Shown piece after piece: positions 1 to 6,982 of a DNA stretch of 6,982 bases. Within the stretch, counting starts at the first letter, position 1. Every line of letters begins with the position of its first letter. The translations under genes and the position numbers were made by a program. The notes under the pieces are model-generated. The model was not told the DNA's origin. It saw only the letters and a program-made list of their open reading frames with translations, and did no database searches. Origin of the DNA: a virus; IMG/VR virus record IMGVR_UViG_3300042557_001444, positions 1 to 6,982 of that record. The stretch is one strand, 5' to 3'.

Positions 1-29
1 AGAAGAATCAAAGTACGCAAAAGATTATT

Positions 30-251
30 ATGTGGTTAAAAACGTATAAAATTAACAATGAATATATTAAAGAGTTTTCCGTTAAATTATTTAAAATACT
101 TTTATTCTCAATGCAATATCACAAAGATGGTGGTTGGTTTAGAATATTCAAAATTGGAATTGCTTGGACAAGAATACCGTTATTCGGTATAAGAAACGGA
201 CACAAAAAGTCGTTAAAAATTAGAAACAATTATTATACATTTATATCATGA
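30..251 (+). CDS. hypothetical small protein (73 aa from ATG 30). The frame is open to the 5' window edge, so this may be the 3' end of a longer gene.
   Basis: It has the same orientation as the downstream genes. Its TGA (249-251) overlaps the next gene's ATG (248-250) in an ATGA junction typical of translational coupling. There is no in-frame stop between nt 3 and 30. I recognise no family. Confidence 0.4.
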   Translation: MWLKTYKINNEYIKEFSVKLFKILLFSMQYHKDGGWFRIFKIGIAWTRIPLFGIRNGHKKSLKIRNNYYTFIS

Positions 252-1444
252 AATTTAAATTAGAATATGTTTGGCTTGATGGTTATAAACCAGAGCCAAA
301 CTTACGAAGTAAAGTCAAAGTCGCAGACATATTAATCAAAGAAGTATCTGATGTTCCTGAGTGGGGATTTGATGGTAGTTCAACAAAACAAGCCGAAGGA
401 TATTCATCCGATTGTTACCTCAAACCTGTTAGGTTATATACTGCCAAAACATATAATGATACAATCTACGTTCTTTGTGAAGTAATGGATAGTAGAGGTA
501 ATGTTCACGAAACAAACGACAGGGCAAAGTTAGGTAAAGAAGATATTAACTTTTGGGTTGGATTTGAACAAGAATATTTTATTCGTTCAGGACATAACAA
601 ACCAATTATTGGATTTAATAATGGTGGCATCATTGACCCTCAAGGAACATATTATTGTGGTGTTGGAGGACAAATGGTTGGAAGAAATTTAACCGAACAA
701 CATTTAGATATGTGTTTAAATTATGGTATTGGTATTGAAGGAACCAACGCTGAGGTCGCATTAGGGCAATGGGAATACCAAGTGTTTGCTAAAGGTAAAG
801 TACAAGCTGCTGACGACCTATGGATGTCTCGTTACTTCCTCTACAAAATTGCCGAAAAAGAAGGATATCAAATTGAATTACATCCAAAACCTTTAACAAC
901 AGGAGATTGGAATGGTTCAGGTCTTCATACCAACTTCTCAAACAAAAGAATGAGAGAAACAGGAGGAGAAGAATACTTCAACTCAATCTTCAAAGTATTT
1001 GAATCAAGAGCAAAAGAACATATTGAAAACTATGGTTCAGAAAATCACTTAAGGCTAACAGGTAAACACGAGACACAGTCAATTGATAAATTTAGTTGGG
1101 GTATATCTGACAGAGGAGCTTCAATCAGGGTTCCAAAATCTGTGGGTGAAACTTGGAAAGGTTATCTTGAAGATAGAAGACCAGCATCTAATGCAAACCC
1201 ATACCGTATTCTAAATGTTATTTCTGAATCATTGGATTTGGCTAAGGATTTGGATGAAACATTACATGTCATGTACGATGATATTGATACAAGTAAGTTA
1301 AGTGAAAAGTTTGGAACATTATCAAGTAATGATTTGTTGGAAGAATATAAGTATGACGAACAATATGAACTTGAAGAAGAAATTATGGAATCAAGGGCAA
1401 ATGTTCCGTCAGAAGAAATTAAATTTAATTTAAATGGAAAATAA
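248..1444 (+). CDS. glnII: glutamine synthetase, type II (eukaryote-like GSII), with an acidic C-terminal extension
   Basis: The 398-aa ORF carries GSII signature blocks along its whole length: EWGFDGSSTKQAEG (beta-grasp N-domain), GFEQEYF, GTNAEVALGQWEYQV, HPKP..GDWNGSGLHTNFS, RLTGKHETQSIDKFSWGISDRGASIRVP and YLEDRRPASNANPY. These are near-identical to the human and plant GS blocks I recall (NAEVMPAQWEFQ, GNWNGAGCHTNFS, RLTGFHETS, YFEDRRPSANCDP). Confidence 0.92.
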   Translation: MKFKLEYVWLDGYKPEPNLRSKVKVADILIKEVSDVPEWGFDGSSTKQAEGYSSDCYLKPVRLYTAKTYNDTIYVLCEVMDSRGNVHETNDRAKLGKEDINFWVGFEQEYFIRSGHNKPIIGFNNGGIIDPQGTYYCGVGGQMVGRNLTEQHLDMCLNYGIGIEGTNAEVALGQWEYQVFAKGKVQAADDLWMSRYFLYKIAEKEGYQIELHPKPLTTGDWNGSGLHTNFSNKRMRETGGEEYFNSIFKVFESRAKEHIENYGSENHLRLTGKHETQSIDKFSWGISDRGASIRVPKSVGETWKGYLEDRRPASNANPYRILNVISESLDLAKDLDETLHVMYDDIDTSKLSEKFGTLSSNDLLEEYKYDEQYELEEEIMESRANVPSEEIKFNLNGK

Positions 1445-1718
1445 TAATATGAAAGAGAATTGTATATGTAATGGTGAAGGACCTTGTCAGTGTAGTGTTC
1501 CTAAAGAAATGGTTAATCACCCTAGTCACTATGGTGGAGAAGATAACCCATATGAGGCGATTAAAGTTATTGAGACTTGGGACTTAGATTTCCACCTTGG
1601 TAATACAGTGAAGTATATTTCAAGGGCGGGAAAAAAAGGAACAGACAAAGAACTTCAAGATTTGAAGAAGGCCTTATGGTATCTTGAAAGAAAAATACAG
1701 AACTTGGAGAGTTTGTAA
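1434..1718 (+). CDS. DUF3310-family phage protein with an N-terminal CxC-x5-CxC cluster
   Basis: NHPSHYGG..YEAIKVIETW.LDFHLGNTVKYISRAGKKG..DLKKALWYLERKI fits the DUF3310 (PF11753) core as I remember it (HY.., KY[IL]xRxxxK, DLxKAxxYL). ATG 1434 overlaps the glnII 3' end by 11 nt. An alternative ATG at 1449 lies just past the glnII stop. Confidence 0.75.
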   Translation: MENNNMKENCICNGEGPCQCSVPKEMVNHPSHYGGEDNPYEAIKVIETWDLDFHLGNTVKYISRAGKKGTDKELQDLKKALWYLERKIQNLESL

Positions 1719-1744
1719 TTCAAATAAAAATACCTATACTTTTA
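1712..1744 (+). promoter_or_regulatory. possible Bacteroidota-type promoter for the methyltransferase gene (imperfect)
   Basis: TTTG (1712-1715), a 21-nt spacer, then TACTTTTA (1737-1744). This matches TAnnTTTG except for the final G>A. An A10 leader (1744-1753) follows, then ATG 1755. Confidence 0.3.
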
Positions 1745-1754
1745 AAAAAAAAAT

Positions 1755-2618
1755 ATGAAGAACTTAGAAGAGATTATAAATACGATTATTAATGGAGATT
1801 CAGTTGAAGTAATGAAAGAAATGCCGAATTCTTTTGTTGATTTGGTTGTTACTAGTCCAAAATATAATGTGGGTATTGATTATGATAGTTGTGACGATAG
1901 AATGTCCATGGAGGATTATTGGGAATGGACAAAACAATGGTTAACTGAGACATTTAATGTTTTGAAAGATGATGGTCGTATTGCAATAAACATTCCATAT
2001 GAAGTGAATGTGCAAGACCGAGGTGGACGAGTGTTGTTTATGTCTGAGTTTTGGTCAGTAATGAAAGAAGTGGGGTTCCAATTCTATGGGTTGGTTGACC
2101 TTGATGAAAACTCACCACACAGAAGTAAGACCACAGCTTGGGGTTCATGGATGAGTCCTTCAAGTCCTTACATATATAACCCAAAAGAGTGTGTTATATT
2201 AGCCTACAAGAAAGACCGTATTAAAAAGATTAAAGGGGAACCTCAATGGAAAGCCGAGATGGTTGACATGGAACAAGAGGATGGAACCATAAAAACTAAA
2301 GCGGTTTATCAAGAAGAGGACAAGAAAGAATTTATGTCTTTGGTTTATGGTCAATGGGAATATTTTGCGGATACAAAACAACAAACTAAGGCAACATTCT
2401 CAATGGACATCCCAATGAAAGCAATTAAGATTCTTACATATAAGAATGATATTGTTCTTGACCCATTCGCTGGCAGCGGGACTAGTTTGGTTGCTGCGGA
2501 AACCTTGGGTCGCAGGTGGATTGGTATTGAACTGAGTGAAAACTATACCAAAGTTGGAAGAGAACGGGTTCAACATTTTGTTGATTTAAATAAACAAACT
2601 AAAATAGAATTTAAGTAA
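1755..2618 (+). CDS. DNA methyltransferase, N6_N4_Mtase family (beta class, motif IV before motif I); orphan
   Basis: The catalytic motif IV region is DLVVTSPKYN, with SPKY at nt 1854-1865. The AdoMet-binding motif I is VLDPFAGSGTSLVAAETLGRRWIGIEL, starting at nt 2454, near the C-terminus. This order is typical of beta-class N4-C/N6-A methyltransferases (PF01555). No endonuclease-like neighbour is present. Confidence 0.88.
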   Translation: MKNLEEIINTIINGDSVEVMKEMPNSFVDLVVTSPKYNVGIDYDSCDDRMSMEDYWEWTKQWLTETFNVLKDDGRIAINIPYEVNVQDRGGRVLFMSEFWSVMKEVGFQFYGLVDLDENSPHRSKTTAWGSWMSPSSPYIYNPKECVILAYKKDRIKKIKGEPQWKAEMVDMEQEDGTIKTKAVYQEEDKKEFMSLVYGQWEYFADTKQQTKATFSMDIPMKAIKILTYKNDIVLDPFAGSGTSLVAAETLGRRWIGIELSENYTKVGRERVQHFVDLNKQTKIEFK

Positions 2619-2642
2619 AAGGGTTTAACGACCCTTTTTTTT
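2619..2642 (+). terminator. intrinsic (rho-independent) terminator after the methyltransferase gene
   Basis: AAGGGT (2619-2624), loop TTAACG, then ACCCTT (2631-2636), running into a run of 8 T (2635-2642) immediately after the TAA stop at 2616-2618. Confidence 0.7.
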
Positions 2643-2673
2643 GTTTTATGGATATTTATAATTAAAACAAAAA

Positions 2674-3705
2674 ATGAGCCAAATCATAATAACTGAAAAA
2701 CAATTGGAGATAATCACCGATAATGTTTTAAGTGGAAAAAAAACATCTAAACAAACAATTAACGAATCTTTATTTAGCATTGAGAATCTTTTAATGGCGG
2801 CTGGGTTTGTGCCTGTAATCGGTGAGGTTGCTGACATAGCACTTATTTGTTATTATCTTTATAAGGGGGAAAAGTTATACGCAGCATTAATGTTGATTGC
2901 TTTAATCCCAACGGTTGGAGACTTTATTGCCAAACCAATTATTAAATTATTCAAAGGTAGTAGAGAAGGTACAATGGCAATGAAAGCTGGTGGTAAAACA
3001 TTATCAGAATATTTGGCAAAAAATCCTCAAATGGCGACAAAATTTAGTAGTTTAGGTAAATATGTTAATGAACCTGCAGTCCAAAAAACTGTTAGAGGTA
3101 TTGAAAATGTTAGTCCTGGATTGGGAGCAAAATTAAGAAGTGGATTAGATATGATTACTGGTAATAAAGCTTTAAGTGGTATCAAGGCAGGTGGTAAAGA
3201 GGTTATAGCAGGTGGAAGTTTTAAAACAGGATTAAAAGATTATTTCCAAGGACAAAGATTATCTAAGTATTTTGAAAAACGTGGTGTTCTACCTGAAACA
3301 GGTATTAAAAGATGGTGGTTAAATGTTGGAGCAAGACAAGATAGAAGAAATGCTTTTAGACAATTTATAGCAGCAAATAATTTATTAGCTTACTTTGGAA
3401 TACCATCATTATCTACTTTTGAAAGAAAATTATCAGATGATGCCGAATTTAGAAAAAAAGTTGCGGAAGACCCAAAAACAAGTGATTATATCGCACAAAA
3501 TTTTGAAAAAGAAGATATGGTGACAAAACAAGAAACTCCTGATTCAGGACCATCTAAAGAAGAAATAAACCAATATATTAAAGATAGAAACTCAGGTAAA
3601 TCTGCAAGTTCGTTGTTTTCTAGTGGAGGTCTTAATCTTTCAAATAAAGAAGGGTTCTCAAATATTTTCACTACAATATTTGGTGGTTCACCACAAATGG
3701 CATAA
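2674..3705 (+). CDS. hypothetical membrane protein (N-terminal TM hairpin, Gly/Lys-rich C-terminal region)
   Basis: This is a 343-aa ORF. Residues ~40-85 form two hydrophobic segments (LLMAAGFVPVIGEVADIALICYYLY and LYAALMLIALIPTVGDFIAKPII), each holding a [VI]P-x-[IV]-G-[ED] motif. The rest is polar with many G and K. An A-rich leader precedes it. It is the first gene after the terminator. Confidence 0.7.
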   Translation: MSQIIITEKQLEIITDNVLSGKKTSKQTINESLFSIENLLMAAGFVPVIGEVADIALICYYLYKGEKLYAALMLIALIPTVGDFIAKPIIKLFKGSREGTMAMKAGGKTLSEYLAKNPQMATKFSSLGKYVNEPAVQKTVRGIENVSPGLGAKLRSGLDMITGNKALSGIKAGGKEVIAGGSFKTGLKDYFQGQRLSKYFEKRGVLPETGIKRWWLNVGARQDRRNAFRQFIAANNLLAYFGIPSLSTFERKLSDDAEFRKKVAEDPKTSDYIAQNFEKEDMVTKQETPDSGPSKEEINQYIKDRNSGKSASSLFSSGGLNLSNKEGFSNIFTTIFGGSPQMA

Positions 3706-3727
3706 AACTAATTATATTAATAAAACT

Positions 3728-4093
3728 ATGGCAAAGAAAATTATAAAACTAACTGAAAACGATTTAAGAAATATCGTTAAAAGAGTAATTTCAGAACAAA
3801 CTGAAAACTATAATATTAACATGGCAATCCAATGTTTCTTAAATAAAAAAGGAATTAAAGATGACGCAGGACAACCATTAAAAATGGATGGTAGTATCGG
3901 TAATTTACCTAACTCTAAAAGTGCTCAAGCAATTGCAAAATACCAATCAAGTATTGGTGTTGATAATGATGGAGTATGGGGTTACGACACTAATACTAAG
4001 ATGCCACCAAAAGATAAAATGATATACAAACAATGTATATCTGACCACGGAGATTTATTTGATAAAGGATTACACTTATTTGGACTTGACTAA
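3728..4093 (+). CDS. small protein with a peptidoglycan-binding (PG_binding_1-like) domain
   Basis: The sequence IQCFLNKKGI..(x8)..MDGSIG..SAQAIAKYQSSIGVDNDGVWGYDTNTKM follows the PG_binding_1 pattern (LQ..L..G....DG.fG..T..Av..fQ...gl..dG.vg..T). I use ATG 3728 (MAKKII...) rather than the upstream non-ATG start at 3623, which overlaps the previous gene by 83 nt. Confidence 0.6.
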   Translation: MAKKIIKLTENDLRNIVKRVISEQTENYNINMAIQCFLNKKGIKDDAGQPLKMDGSIGNLPNSKSAQAIAKYQSSIGVDNDGVWGYDTNTKMPPKDKMIYKQCISDHGDLFDKGLHLFGLD

Positions 4094-4096
4094 CTA

Positions 4097-5494
4097 ATGA
4101 AAAGAAGGATAACAGAATCAGGAATACGTGATATTTCCGCTTTAAGAAAAAGATATCCTAAAGCAGAAATATATTTTCACCAAGATTTAGATGGTGTCAC
4201 AACAGCAATTGCAATGAAAAAATACCTTGAAGACAATGGTATTGATGTAATTGATTCACACGTAATTCAATATGGTGATAAAGAGTTTGCAGTTAAGAAA
4301 CTTGATGCAACAGGTGATGTTATGCCAGTCTTAGTTGATTTTGCTCACGGTAAACCAATGTTCGTTATTCATACTGACCACCACGATAGACAAGCAGGTG
4401 CTGAAGATACTAAGTCTACATCATTCAGGTCTTCTCGTTCAAACGTTGAAACGATATCTCAAGTAGTATCTCCAAAAGATTTATTTCCCTCTTCAGATGT
4501 GTTATTAATCAATACTGTTGACTCTGCGGATTATGCAAAACATGATATTACTCCTGATGAAGTTGTTAATTATATCTTTAGATTAGATAAAGACAAATCA
4601 TTACAAAAGAATAAAATGTTAATGGGTCTTGTTATTAACAAGTTATTATTAGCATTTAAAAACAAAAAAGGTTTTTTAGAAGGGTTAGTTAAAAATTCGG
4701 AACCATCTTTATTGTCTATTTTGACAAACATTAGAGAATGGATGAAACAAACAAACGCTGTAAAACCTGAAGAATTACAAAAAAATGCCGAAGCATATAA
4801 AGAAACAATGAAAGGTTATCCTAAAGTTGAGGATAATATCATATTTCAATATGGTGGAGGTTCAATGATTAAACCAGGTTCTTATGATAGATACACACCA
4901 TTTAGAAACAATCCTGAAGCCGATTTCTTAATCATGGCTTGGCCTATGGGGTTAGTACAAGCATCTTGTAATCCTTTCAAAAAAGAAAGAGAACTTAAAG
5001 GTGTTAATTTGGGTGAAATAGCTCAAGAGGTAATATCTAAATGGGAAGACCAATTAAAATTAAGAACAATTCCATTATCTACAATCAAATGGGTTAGTGA
5101 AACATCTGCAACACCTGAGAGTGTTGGATTTACATTTAAAGATTTTAAAGCGTTATATGGTGATAAGTTTACAACCATGGAAGGCGGTGAAAAAGTTTTG
5201 GACCATATTCAAGATATGATGGAAACACCATTTACTGACTTAACAGAAGAACACAAAGAAATGTTAGATAAGATTGGTATCAATGCTTGGGATTTAATTC
5301 AGGCTAATTCAGGTGGACACAAATGTATTACAAACATATCTGGTTTAAATTATTTAGGTAGAGGTAAAAGACCACCTCAAGGTCAATATAGATACGACTC
5401 TGAAAAAGACGACTCACCTTCAGTTAAGTTTACAAAAATGATTGCTCAGGAGTTTGAGAGAGTTTTAAAAGAAAAGATTGCTGAATCAAAATAA
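4097..5494 (+). CDS. DHH/DHHA1-family phosphoesterase (NrnA/RecJ-like superfamily)
   Basis: Ordered DHH motifs are present: I, FHQDLDGV (from nt 4178); II, VLVDFAHG; III, IHTDHHD (DHH at 4376-4384); IV, INTVDSADY. The DHHA1 motif is SGGHKCITNISG (GGH at 5312-5320). The gene starts 3 nt after the previous stop. Confidence 0.8.
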   Translation: MKRRITESGIRDISALRKRYPKAEIYFHQDLDGVTTAIAMKKYLEDNGIDVIDSHVIQYGDKEFAVKKLDATGDVMPVLVDFAHGKPMFVIHTDHHDRQAGAEDTKSTSFRSSRSNVETISQVVSPKDLFPSSDVLLINTVDSADYAKHDITPDEVVNYIFRLDKDKSLQKNKMLMGLVINKLLLAFKNKKGFLEGLVKNSEPSLLSILTNIREWMKQTNAVKPEELQKNAEAYKETMKGYPKVEDNIIFQYGGGSMIKPGSYDRYTPFRNNPEADFLIMAWPMGLVQASCNPFKKERELKGVNLGEIAQEVISKWEDQLKLRTIPLSTIKWVSETSATPESVGFTFKDFKALYGDKFTTMEGGEKVLDHIQDMMETPFTDLTEEHKEMLDKIGINAWDLIQANSGGHKCITNISGLNYLGRGKRPPQGQYRYDSEKDDSPSVKFTKMIAQEFERVLKEKIAESK

Positions 5495-5833
5495 GTATTC
5501 AACGGTGTCACCAGGTTCAATACCTAATTCTTCACAAGAACCACCTTCAATTTCTAATACGATATTTCCGTTACCACAGTAACTCCCACACATGTCACCT
5601 TCACACGGAGGACAGTCGTGGTGGATATTAACTATTACATTATTTTTAATTATTATTATATCTAAAGGCACAATACAATTCTTCATCCAAAAACATTGTT
5701 TATCTCCACCCATCAGAAATAATAGACCATCAAAAGTTTCATCAAACTTTTTACCCATCATGCCAACATATTTTGATTTTTCATCAATTAATGTTTTGAC
5801 ATTAAAAATATTTTGATTAACTTTGACTCTCAT
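5486..5833 (-). CDS. DUF192-family protein (COG1430) with a Cys-rich insertion
   Basis: It contains YVGMMGKK..DGLLFLM...CFWMKNCIVPLDIIIIKNN.IV.I.....P........VLEIEGG...LGIEPGDTV, which matches the DUF192 core (GLMgR..GMLF..fWMknt.ipLDiiFi..vLEl.aG..gi.Gd.v). I prefer the ATG at 5833 (MRVKV), which gives a complete domain. The longer ORF from 5893 would add a hydrophobic 20 aa but would overlap the Nudix gene by 47 nt. Confidence 0.72.
   Translation of the reverse strand: MRVKVNQNIFNVKTLIDEKSKYVGMMGKKFDETFDGLLFLMGGDKQCFWMKNCIVPLDIIIIKNNVIVNIHHDCPPCEGDMCGSYCGNGNIVLEIEGGSCEELGIEPGDTVEYLF
5795..5825 (+). promoter_or_regulatory. Bacteroidota-type promoter (-33 TTTG / -7 TAnnTTTG) for the Nudix gene
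   Basis: TTTG (5795-5798), a 19-nt spacer, then TAACTTTG (5818-5825), 21 nt upstream of ATG 5847. It lies inside the 5' part of the opposite-strand DUF192 gene. Confidence 0.6.
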
Positions 5834-5846
5834 AACAATAAATACA

Positions 5847-6266
5847 ATGAATGCTAAAAGATACGTTGGTGTTATCGTAAAATACCAAGACAAATTTTTA
5901 ATCTGTAAAAGAAATGATGAGGGTTTAGGACAAGGTGAATGGTCAATACCCGCAGGTAAAGTTGATGGAGATGAAAAACTTGAAGTTTCAGCTAAAAGGG
6001 AATTCTTTGAAGAAACCGCGGTTAATATTGATGACCAAGAACTAAAGTTTGCTGGAATGATACCAAGGTATACTAGAGATGGTTCTAAAATGAAAGGATT
6101 AATGTATACTTATCAAATTGATGTTAAAGTATCACTTAAACCTAATTTGGAAGAAGCCATTGATGGGAGTGAACACACAGAATGGGGTTATTTTACGTTG
6201 AATGAGATGAAAAACATGAAAATTAATACTTTTTTGTATAAATTGTTTGAATTTATTTCAATTTAG
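5847..6266 (+). CDS. Nudix hydrolase
   Basis: The Nudix box GKVDGDEKLEVSAKREFFEETAV (nt 5955-6023) fits Gx5Ex7REUxEExGU, with A in place of the last G. I chose ATG 5847 (MNAKRY...). The TTG at 5823 given in the ORF track lies inside the -7 promoter box. Confidence 0.85.
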   Translation: MNAKRYVGVIVKYQDKFLICKRNDEGLGQGEWSIPAGKVDGDEKLEVSAKREFFEETAVNIDDQELKFAGMIPRYTRDGSKMKGLMYTYQIDVKVSLKPNLEEAIDGSEHTEWGYFTLNEMKNMKINTFLYKLFEFISI

Positions 6267-6305
6267 TTGACTTTTGAGATAAGTAGACTATATTTATAAT
6301 CTCAT

Positions 6306-6317
6306 GTCCGAAAGGAC
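6306..6317 (+). other. GNRA-tetraloop hairpin (GTCC-GAAA-GGAC) in the intergenic region after the Nudix gene
   Basis: It is a perfect 4-bp stem closed by GAAA. No T-run follows, so it is not a classic terminator. Confidence 0.4.
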
Positions 6318-6351
6318 AAACATCCCCACAATGATAGTTTCATAAAATAAA

Positions 6352-6383
6352 TTTGACAAAATGAGAATTTTGTTTTAACTTTG
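6352..6383 (+). promoter_or_regulatory. Bacteroidota-type promoter (Pa)
   Basis: TTTG (6352-6355), a 20-nt spacer, then TAACTTTG (6376-6383). The 12-mer CTTTGTGAAACA (6379-6390) is identical to that of promoter Pc (6623-6634). Confidence 0.55.
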
Positions 6384-6417
6384 TGAAACAAATGAGATGA
6401 GAGTCTCAAAAAAAAAA

Positions 6418-6467
6418 TGTCCCACAGATATTTGATTATTTGAAAAAATAAGATTAAGTTTGTGGGA
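6418..6467 (+). other. long composite hairpin enclosing promoter Pb
   Basis: The outer stem is GTCCCACA (6418-6425) with TGTGGGAC (6460-6467). The inner stem is TTATTT (6435-6440), GAAA loop, AAATAA (6445-6450). TTATTTT follows. Confidence 0.4.
6430..6461 (+). promoter_or_regulatory. Bacteroidota-type promoter (Pb) for the tRNA gene
   Basis: TTTG (6430-6433), a 20-nt spacer, then TAAGTTTG (6454-6461). The -7 box ends 40 nt before the tRNA 5' end. Confidence 0.6.
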
Positions 6468-6501
6468 CTTATTTTAAAAGTTCTTTGAATAAAAAATATA
6501 T

Positions 6502-6574
<73 letters not shown>

Positions 6575-6587
6575 CAAAAAAACTTTC

Positions 6588-6628
6588 ACAAAAAGTTTGG
6601 TAAATTAAAAAGTTTATCTTACCTTTGT
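6588..6628 (+). repeat. 41-nt direct repeat, copy 1 (contains promoter Pc)
   Basis: ACAAAAAGTTTGGTAAATTAAAAAGTTTATCTTACCTTTGT. It matches 6702-6742 at 40 of 41 positions (A6607 versus G6721), offset 114 nt. Confidence 0.9.
6596..6627 (+). promoter_or_regulatory. Bacteroidota-type promoter (Pc)
   Basis: TTTG (6596-6599), a 20-nt spacer, then TACCTTTG (6620-6627). Confidence 0.55.
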
Positions 6629-6701
6629 GAAACATTTGACAATCACCGAATTCAAATCTCACTATCGGTAGTTATAGAGTAAGATTGTTAAAAAAAAGTT
6701 T

Positions 6702-6742
6702 ACAAAAAGTTTGGTAAATTGAAAAGTTTATCTTACCTTTGT
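6702..6742 (+). repeat. 41-nt direct repeat, copy 2 (contains promoter Pd)
   Basis: It matches 6588-6628 at 40 of 41 positions. Confidence 0.9.
6710..6741 (+). promoter_or_regulatory. Bacteroidota-type promoter (Pd)
   Basis: TTTG (6710-6713), a 20-nt spacer, then TACCTTTG (6734-6741). Confidence 0.55.
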
Positions 6743-6744
6743 AG

Positions 6745-6982
6745 ACCAACCAAGAAAAGGTTAACGTTGTTGTAAAACTTTGGTTCCCTTTTCTAAAATT
6801 GAAATTCGTTCTTTGAATATATAATATTTATCCGTTCAGTAGTTGATTATGAGACCTTCGGGTTGATTATGAGACATTTAATCTGATAAAGGTAATCGGC
6901 CGTATATGGTCGTTAAATAAACCACGAAAGTGGGATAAAGTGAACCTGTTGTGTTAACAGGATTGCGGCTTCGGTAACGGAG
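6745..6982 (+). ncRNA. candidate structured non-coding RNA of unknown class, truncated by the window end
   Basis: It sits downstream of the tandem promoters Pc and Pd. No ORF longer than a few codons is present. Several compact hairpins have extra-stable loops:
- GACC-TTCG-GGTT (6853-6864)
- CGGCC-GTATAT-GGTCG (6897-6912)
- CCAC-GAAA-GTGG (6922-6933)
- CCTGTT-GTGTT-AACAGG (6945-6961)
- CTTCGG (6969-6974)
- AGAAAAGG with CCTTTTCT (6753-6760 and 6787-6794). Confidence 0.45.
6842..6875 (+). repeat. two perfect 14-nt direct repeats (GTTGATTATGAGAC) spaced 20 nt apart, flanking a UUCG hairpin
   Basis: The copies lie at 6842-6855 and 6862-6875, separated only by CTTCGG. Confidence 0.85.

Follow-up and report, generated by a model that had tools for sequence, protein, structure and literature searches.

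The window analysed here is a 6,982-nucleotide stretch of viral DNA (IMG/VR record IMGVR_UViG_3300042557_001444, positions 1 to 6,982), the last 630 bases of which contain no protein gene. The genes upstream are of phage type and encode a DUF3310 protein, an N6/N4 DNA methylase, a glutamine-synthetase (GS)-like protein and a NUDIX hydrolase; the gene set of 248–6266 as a whole (GS-like protein at 248–1444, DUF3310, N6/N4 methylase, a DHH-like protein of 465 aa, NUDIX and DUF192, the last on the minus strand and overlapping the NUDIX start) could represent a nucleotide-modification or DNA-modification cluster. Flavobacterium phages are the nearest cultured relatives, via the DUF3310 gene only, and the phage host is probably Flavobacterium-like and aquatic. 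At the gene-free end lies a tRNA-Met with the hallmarks of an initiator (a C1 x A72 mismatch, and an anticodon stem closed by three G-C pairs), followed 170 nt downstream by position 6745, where the region under study begins. The plus strand of 6745–6982 carries no ORF of at least 20 aa, in keeping with the original prediction that this stretch has no usable reading frame, and a blastn search of 6200–6982 against GenBank phages matched the tRNA and nothing else. The features of this end of the window up to the start of the structured region are:

6352–6383 (promoter), about 6412–6475 (hairpin) and 6480–6488 (GUUCUUUGA box), plus strand: the tRNA-Met's own leader.
6502–6575, plus strand: tRNA-Met (CAU), the only Rfam match in the window.
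6596–6627, plus strand: upstream tandem promoter, predicted from a pattern match, within repeat D1, with TTTG at -33 and TACCTTTG at -7.
6710–6741, plus strand: proximal promoter, a predicted, near-identical copy, with the start site predicted a few bases past 6741.
6753–6794, plus strand: leader hairpin, AGAAAAGG (6753–6760) with CCUUUUCU (6787–6794), in the boxB position of rrn leaders.
6808–6816, plus strand: GUUCUUUGA box.

The two tandem promoters lie in cassettes (6576–6628 and 6690–6742) that share 92% identity across 53 nt, each of which contains one Bacteroidota-type promoter of the form TTTG-N18-21-TAnnTTTG. This pattern occurs five times in the window, always on the plus strand, against an expectation of 0.34, and five matches were reached in 0 of 200 shuffles; the duplicated promoter cassettes originally proposed at 6588–6628 and 6702–6742 thus stand as near-identical repeats with promoter matches above chance. 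The proximal promoter arrangement is conserved in the related loci L001–L008. The spacer between the tandem promoters (6629–6700) folds more stably than shuffled sequence (z = -2.66), ends in a run of eight A residues and is without the box.

GOLLD is a class of giant, cage-forming phage RNAs of unknown function. On the strength of sequence comparisons, we are highly confident that 6745–6982 represents the promoter-proximal leader of a GOLLD RNA gene from an uncultured Bacteroidota phage, together with the initial ~85 nt of the RNA. Rfam searches of the window at gathering and E-value thresholds returned the tRNA only, with no match to GOLLD, ROOL, introns, tmRNA, RNase P, 6S or HEARO; the Rfam GOLLD model (RF02032, gathering threshold 150 bits) spans the GOLLD 3' domain only, and the window lacks a match because it stops ~305 nt short of the domain that the model covers. 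Downstream extension and Infernal searching, which had been recommended with the original prediction, were carried out through related contigs: all 33 that were scanned carry the RF02032 3' domain (255–330 bits) on the same strand and at the expected distance, GOLLD membership being judged by proxy from relatives 91–97% identical to the locus rather than from this contig's own 3' part. A 29-mer specific to the window, used to seek that contig, had no match in the viral and metagenome collections.

These relatives were reached by several routes. A 23-mer from the window end was found in eight IMG/VR contigs that are 91–97% identical to 6745–6982; the five that were Rfam-scanned all contain RF02032 (321–322 bits), starting ~305 nt past the window end, and of the other three, L004 has the GOLLD 3' motif and two end before that point. 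An independent set of 29 metagenome contigs was obtained with a 27-mer of the leader (6836–6862) as the probe, and all 16 of those scanned, each with at least roughly 900 nt of downstream sequence, were positive for RF02032 (255–321 bits), as were 12/12 diverse loci retrieved by the GOLLD 3' motif (296–330 bits). The nearest RF02032-bearing relatives are 95–97% identical to the last 240–410 nt of the window, and L211 shares 95% identity with 6572–6982. An nhmmer search with 6745–6982 matched 77 GOLLD loci (E-values of 8e-63 to 5e-5), the matches mostly beginning near query position 60 (window 6803–6808) and ending at a near-constant 552–583 nt from the 3' motif across 49 distinct loci. In every related contig long enough to show it, homologues of 6805–6982 are followed, at a fixed distance, by a full GOLLD 3' domain.

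The window end hides what follows, and an ORF-free 6745–6982 could in principle be a plain 5' UTR or structured leader of a protein gene just past it; we give this reading practically no credence, as the ~750 nt that follow are GOLLD in all 33 Rfam-scanned relatives. Indeed, in L001 an intrinsic terminator comes directly after the GOLLD model, and the ~1,000 nt from promoter to terminator, a predicted untranslated transcript (the class is defined by more than 800 nt), lack any significant ORF: the GOLLD strand offers only TTG- or GTG-initiated ORFs of at most 63 aa within the RNA, and the next gene begins past the terminator with promoter-like sequence of its own ahead of it. The phage-type genes in the window and the viral relatives in IMG/VR place the RNA in a phage genome, where it neighbours a tRNA gene, as GOLLD usually does. 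The central proposal made from the sequence alone, that this is the 5' part of a large structured RNA encoded by a phage next to a tRNA, is therefore borne out by the GOLLD 3' domains of the relatives, and GOLLD was among the candidates then listed; the intron-like, retron-type, guide-type and plain-leader options named beside it found no support.

GOLLD sequences related to this one also occur in two huge uncultured phages of 630–640 kb in GenBank, at 67–70% identity: LR745206.1 (420443–420763), where the match lies in the 5' domain, and LR756502.1 (434648–435053), where it starts at the boundary of the 5' and 3' domains and falls mostly in the latter. Phage-borne tmRNA genes (74–123 bits) were additionally observed within a few kilobases of GOLLD in L011, L021, L040, L049, L219 and L221; the L221 gene shares its strand with GOLLD, and the other five have the opposite orientation.

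The best-characterized point of comparison is env-38, a marine metagenomic GOLLD that forms a 14-mer nanocage as determined by cryo-EM (Kretsch et al. 2025, PMC12286853) and that sits downstream of a Met-tRNA (PMC12286853); nanocage assembly is also known for the Streptococcus agalactiae GOLLD. Using the env-38 sequence of Kretsch et al. 2025 (Supplementary Table 4), in which the start of the construct corresponds to window position ~6895, alignment indicates that 6898–6972 is homologous to nt 5–78 of env-38: 55 of 73 positions are identical (75%), with a score of 71 against 30.3 +/- 4.9 for shuffles (maximum 51, n=500). L001 and env-38 share 75% identity in a 550-nt alignment that covers the whole 5' domain (env-38 nt 1–420). 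The two RNAs share the order of hairpins from 5' to 3', the GAAA and GUAA loops, the invariant GGAUAAAGUG junction, a phage context and a Met-tRNA immediately upstream; they differ in that the window stops after roughly a tenth of the RNA, and in that this subfamily has a conserved region of ~90 nt (the box and a stem-loop domain) 5' of the env-38 construct start, which lies outside both the Rfam model and the 2025 covariation tables. What had been put forward as a candidate novel structured RNA accordingly belongs to a class that is already known, given RF02032 in 33/33 relatives and the homology with env-38, a member with a cryo-EM structure. ROOL is likewise a large untranslated phage RNA found near tRNAs, but it has no sequence or structure match to the RNA in the window, and Rfam detected ROOL neither in the window nor in any scanned locus.

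To describe the structure, we aligned 49 non-redundant 5' domains (alignment A1), for which MAFFT gave clear counts for the alignable helices. RNAalifold predicted 102 pairs in the 5' domain, 69 of them with compensatory changes. The helices that lie wholly or partly in the window are paired in 91.3% of cells, whereas sliding the partners gives 27–44%; 22 of 39 tested pairs show compensatory changes, and the observed covariation score was reached by 0 of 500 shuffles. The single-sequence fold has a z-score of only -1.41 (15 of 200 shuffles were equally stable), and the case for structure is for this reason comparative and not thermodynamic. The structural elements are:

6828–6895, plus strand: stem-loop domain that precedes the published 5' end of GOLLD; its inner helix and a UUCG hairpin covary.
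6897–6912, plus strand: first GOLLD hairpin, stem CGGCC/GGUCG, corresponding to about nt 4–18 of env-38.
6922–6933, plus strand: second hairpin, CCAC-GAAA-GUGG, 98.9% of cells paired.
6933–6942, plus strand: junction GGAUAAAGUG, invariant in A1 and found in env-38.
6940–6966, plus strand: third hairpin, GUGAACCUGUU ... AACAGGAUUGC, 93% of cells paired, 5/8 pairs compensatory.
6967–6982, plus strand: fourth hairpin, cut at the window end, with GGCUUCG at 6967–6973, the GNRA loop GUAA at 6974–6977 and the start of the 3' strand.

The loop of the first hairpin, GUAUAU (6902–6907), pairs with a GUAYAC that lies 6–11 nt beyond the window end; all cells are paired, one pair splits between GC (29) and AU (19), and the helix is a candidate pseudoknot. 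One pair of the second hairpin (columns 251/262) is UA in 28 sequences and CG in 19, the env-38 equivalent of this hairpin being UAC-GAAA-GUA, and the third hairpin differs from that of env-38 in sequence while its pairing is the same. In A1 all cells of the fourth hairpin are paired and two of its pairs covary; its GUAA loop is also present in env-38. Compensatory changes in 48 distinct homologues confirm four of the stems that had been picked out by eye: the UUCG hairpin at 6853–6864, the stem at 6897–6912, the GAAA hairpin at 6922–6933 and the stem at 6945–6961, which extends to 6940–6966. A second UUCG loop, read at 6969–6974, proved to be mistaken, its bases belonging to the 5' stem strand of the fourth hairpin (6967–6973), the true loop of which is GUAA.

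Within the domain upstream of the published 5' end, the inner base helix (UCAG 6836–6839 with CUGA 6883–6886) covaries, and the UUCG hairpin at 6853–6864 has the direct repeat GUUGAUUAUGAGAC on both of its flanks. Pairing at the outside of the domain is less clear. UUAUC (6828–6832) and GGUAA (6891–6895) form a candidate outer helix in which covariation is weak, with a few compensatory swaps and also mismatches, and GGUAA competes for the same UUAUCC strand (6828–6833) with a distal GGAUAA partner that is perfectly conserved and never covaries. RNAalifold selects the distal pairing once the downstream context is removed. This is the long-range pairing of TTTATCC (6827–6833) with GGATAAA (6933–6939) from the original prediction, which is complementary and conserved, as claimed, but shows no compensatory change. 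A longest-helix test of the proximal outer helix, made against shuffles and cross-pairings, gave 5.45 bp against 5.24 bp for shuffled sequence and is uninformative because the sequence is AT-rich.

This domain contains an insert of 52 nt (6836–6887) that is invariant in 27 of the 29 metagenome loci; the part that was not used as a probe (6863–6887) is 99.7% identical across 26 distinct rows of the window's clade, which compares with 82%, 76%, 58% and 48% for the neighbouring GOLLD helices P1, P2, P3 and P4, respectively. Such conservation above that of GOLLD helices would be unusual for a discarded leader, and it bears on whether the first ~150 nt (6745–6896) are instead a small RNA in their own right or a leader that is processed away from the mature GOLLD. 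We consider this reading, in either form, rather unlikely, although it has evidence in its favor: the cage-forming env-38 construct starts at the equivalent of ~6895, the published covariation tables span positions 422–832 only (PMC12286853), and rRNA leaders that carry boxA are trimmed. Besides the conservation of the insert, it is opposed by the candidate outer helix, which abuts the first GOLLD hairpin, and by the 6896/6897 junction, where there is neither a terminator nor a known signal for processing.

The insert also contains two UUAUGAG heptamers that match the initiator anticodon loop (CUCAUAA) in antisense, as well as GACCUUCGGG, whose complement in the tRNA-Met spans the variable loop and the 3' side of the anticodon stem. 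Its antisense match to tRNA-Met 6530–6549 covers 17 nt with one 4-nt gap and scores 26, compared with 11.1 +/- 1.9 for shuffles, none of which (0/2000) scored as high. This match, the 99.7–100% invariance of the insert and the binding of ribosomes to GOLLD in pull-down assays (Kretsch et al., PMC12286853) would all be consistent with an insert that acts by pairing with initiator tRNA, or as a pair of mini-ORF starts that recruits ribosomes. We nevertheless judge this improbable: other clades keep the hairpin but have lost the complementarity and the second AUG (scores of 10–12 in L011, L031, L004 and L017), a tRNA-Met is nearby in only 1 of the 29 insert-carrying loci, much of the tRNA target lies within a stem, and no synonymous variation hints at a peptide. 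With no covariation found between the insert and the neighbouring tRNA, and with the complementarity lost elsewhere, the tRNA-antisense idea was set aside.

The leader itself resembles that of rRNA operons. In 22 of 25 distinct leaders the promoter and the box are separated by a hairpin (mean z of -3.25), its sequence being conserved in close relatives only; the stem originally drawn between 6753–6760 and 6787–6794 accordingly exists, with 8 bp, although only close relatives share its sequence. The GUUCUUUGA box that follows is near-invariant in 49 GOLLD leaders and is more strongly conserved than any other element 5' of the published GOLLD start. Its 20-nt version here (GUUCUUUGAAUA..., 6808–6827) recurs at 6480–6499 (repeat D3), 22 nt ahead of the tRNA. 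Across 805 kb of related loci the GOLLD strand has 110 copies of the 9-mer and the opposite strand 19; what comes after it is GOLLD (74 cases), a tRNA (10 cases) or another noncoding unit located behind a promoter. The median spacing of GUUCUUUGA from the -7 box is 27 nt, and it is 66 nt in the window.

For comparison with hosts, we retrieved 120 Bacteroidota 16S loci, which provided 97 leaders and 43 16S–23S spacers. The motif GTTCTTTGA occurs in 43/97 of the 16S leaders, 47–305 nt (mostly ~85–200 nt) upstream of the 16S start, and in 13/43 of the spacers, with no occurrence of the reverse-complement control in either. Phage and rrn leaders share an A-rich context around the motif, with up to 19 nt identical. 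Additionally, GUUCUUUGA matches 9 of the 10 specified positions of the gamma-proteobacterial boxA consensus GYTCTTTAANA (PMC5725501). Judging by these resemblances, GUUCUUUGA is probably an rrn-type boxA, although the exact 9-mer is found in fewer than half of the host 16S leaders. The alternative, that it is some other Bacteroidota stable-RNA signal, for instance one that marks a processing site, works as a promoter-downstream element or is bound by another factor, draws on its departure from the E. coli boxA consensus at position 8 and on literature searches that found no boxA sequence for Bacteroidota. We doubt it, in view of the match to the consensus, the strand bias, the boxA-like placement ahead of 16S and within the 16S–23S spacer, and the hairpin that precedes the box as in rrn boxB–boxA leaders.

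The box does not extend to GOLLD as a whole: the sequence ahead of GOLLD lacks it in three phages of other phyla (Streptococcus phage LYGO9, Mycobacterium phage Bongo and Caulobacter phage phiCbK), and we therefore rejected it as a general GOLLD feature and regard it as particular to this subfamily. Four ROOL RNAs from human-gut metagenomes (Kretsch et al. 2025 supplement, PMC12286853) start with UGUUCUUUGAUAUG, the same box, and an rRNA-style leader may for this reason precede some ROOL genes too. A further RNA with its own promoter–hairpin–box leader, ~130 nt long, conserved and cloverleaf-like, was observed just upstream of GOLLD in L013 (~2465–2787, minus strand) and is also present in L020, L036, L040 and L056; it has a closing stem (GGUUAU/AUAACC) and three hairpins, with four compensatory pairs among four sequences, and had no Rfam match at E <= 1.

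The rrn antitermination complex consists of NusA, NusB, NusE, NusG and SuhB. The succession of two promoters 114 bp apart, a hairpin and GUUCUUUGA is that of rrn leaders and stands here before untranslated RNAs only; it differs from them in driving a phage GOLLD RNA and phage tRNAs instead of rRNA, and in that the role of Nus factors is putative. Lambdoid nut sites, in which boxA and boxB act with the N protein, offer a second parallel, namely a phage transcript with a boxA-like element and putative recruitment of host Nus factors. However, the window has its hairpin ahead of the box, an order that fits rrn leaders and not nut sites; an N-like protein is not evident; and the transcript concerned is noncoding, whereas nut sites serve delayed-early genes. 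Literature searches linking GOLLD to antitermination or boxA found nothing relevant. We lean, by a little over even odds, towards a leader that copies the host rrn leader and in which the box would load NusB/NusE and the antitermination complex, shielding the RNA and tRNA from Rho and aiding folding.

Taken together, we propose the following account. Transcription would start at the two tandem Bacteroidota-type promoters, whose -7 boxes end at 6627 and 6741, and would yield an untranslated RNA of ~1 kb ended by an intrinsic terminator and folding like env-38, with a 5' cap domain and a 3' ring domain, into a multimeric nanocage. The leader, with its promoter, hairpin and GUUCUUUGA, may copy that of host rRNA operons, and the box may load NusB/NusE and the rest of the rrn antitermination complex; antitermination would then protect the long untranslated transcript, along with the neighbouring tRNA, from Rho and assist co-transcriptional folding. 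The domain at 6828–6895 would either be part of the mature RNA of this subfamily or be trimmed like an rRNA leader. In its broadest form, which we advance tentatively and with rather less than even confidence, Bacteroidota phages would run a noncoding-RNA island (initiator tRNA, GOLLD and the ~130-nt RNA) off rrn-like leaders and borrow the antitermination and RNA-chaperone complex for their cage RNA, the mature GOLLD would include the extra 5' domain, and the insert would be a sequence-specific binding site of the cage.

The main outcome is a correction, in that a presumed new RNA turns out to be the truncated 5' part of an RNA whose class was already known; since the Rfam GOLLD model describes the 3' domain only, windows that hold just the 5' part go unflagged. 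The rrn-matching GUUCUUUGA box, the 6828–6895 domain and the 52-nt, tRNA-antisense, clade-invariant insert appear to be unreported so far, and because the function of GOLLD is unknown, the leader and the extra domain could interest specialists. The domain 5' of the published end is absent from the cryo-EM constructs, and its clade-invariant insert may bind a ligand or partner. An rRNA-style leader ahead of GOLLD and phage tRNAs provides a testable idea of how a cage RNA of ~1 kb may escape Rho and fold as it is transcribed.
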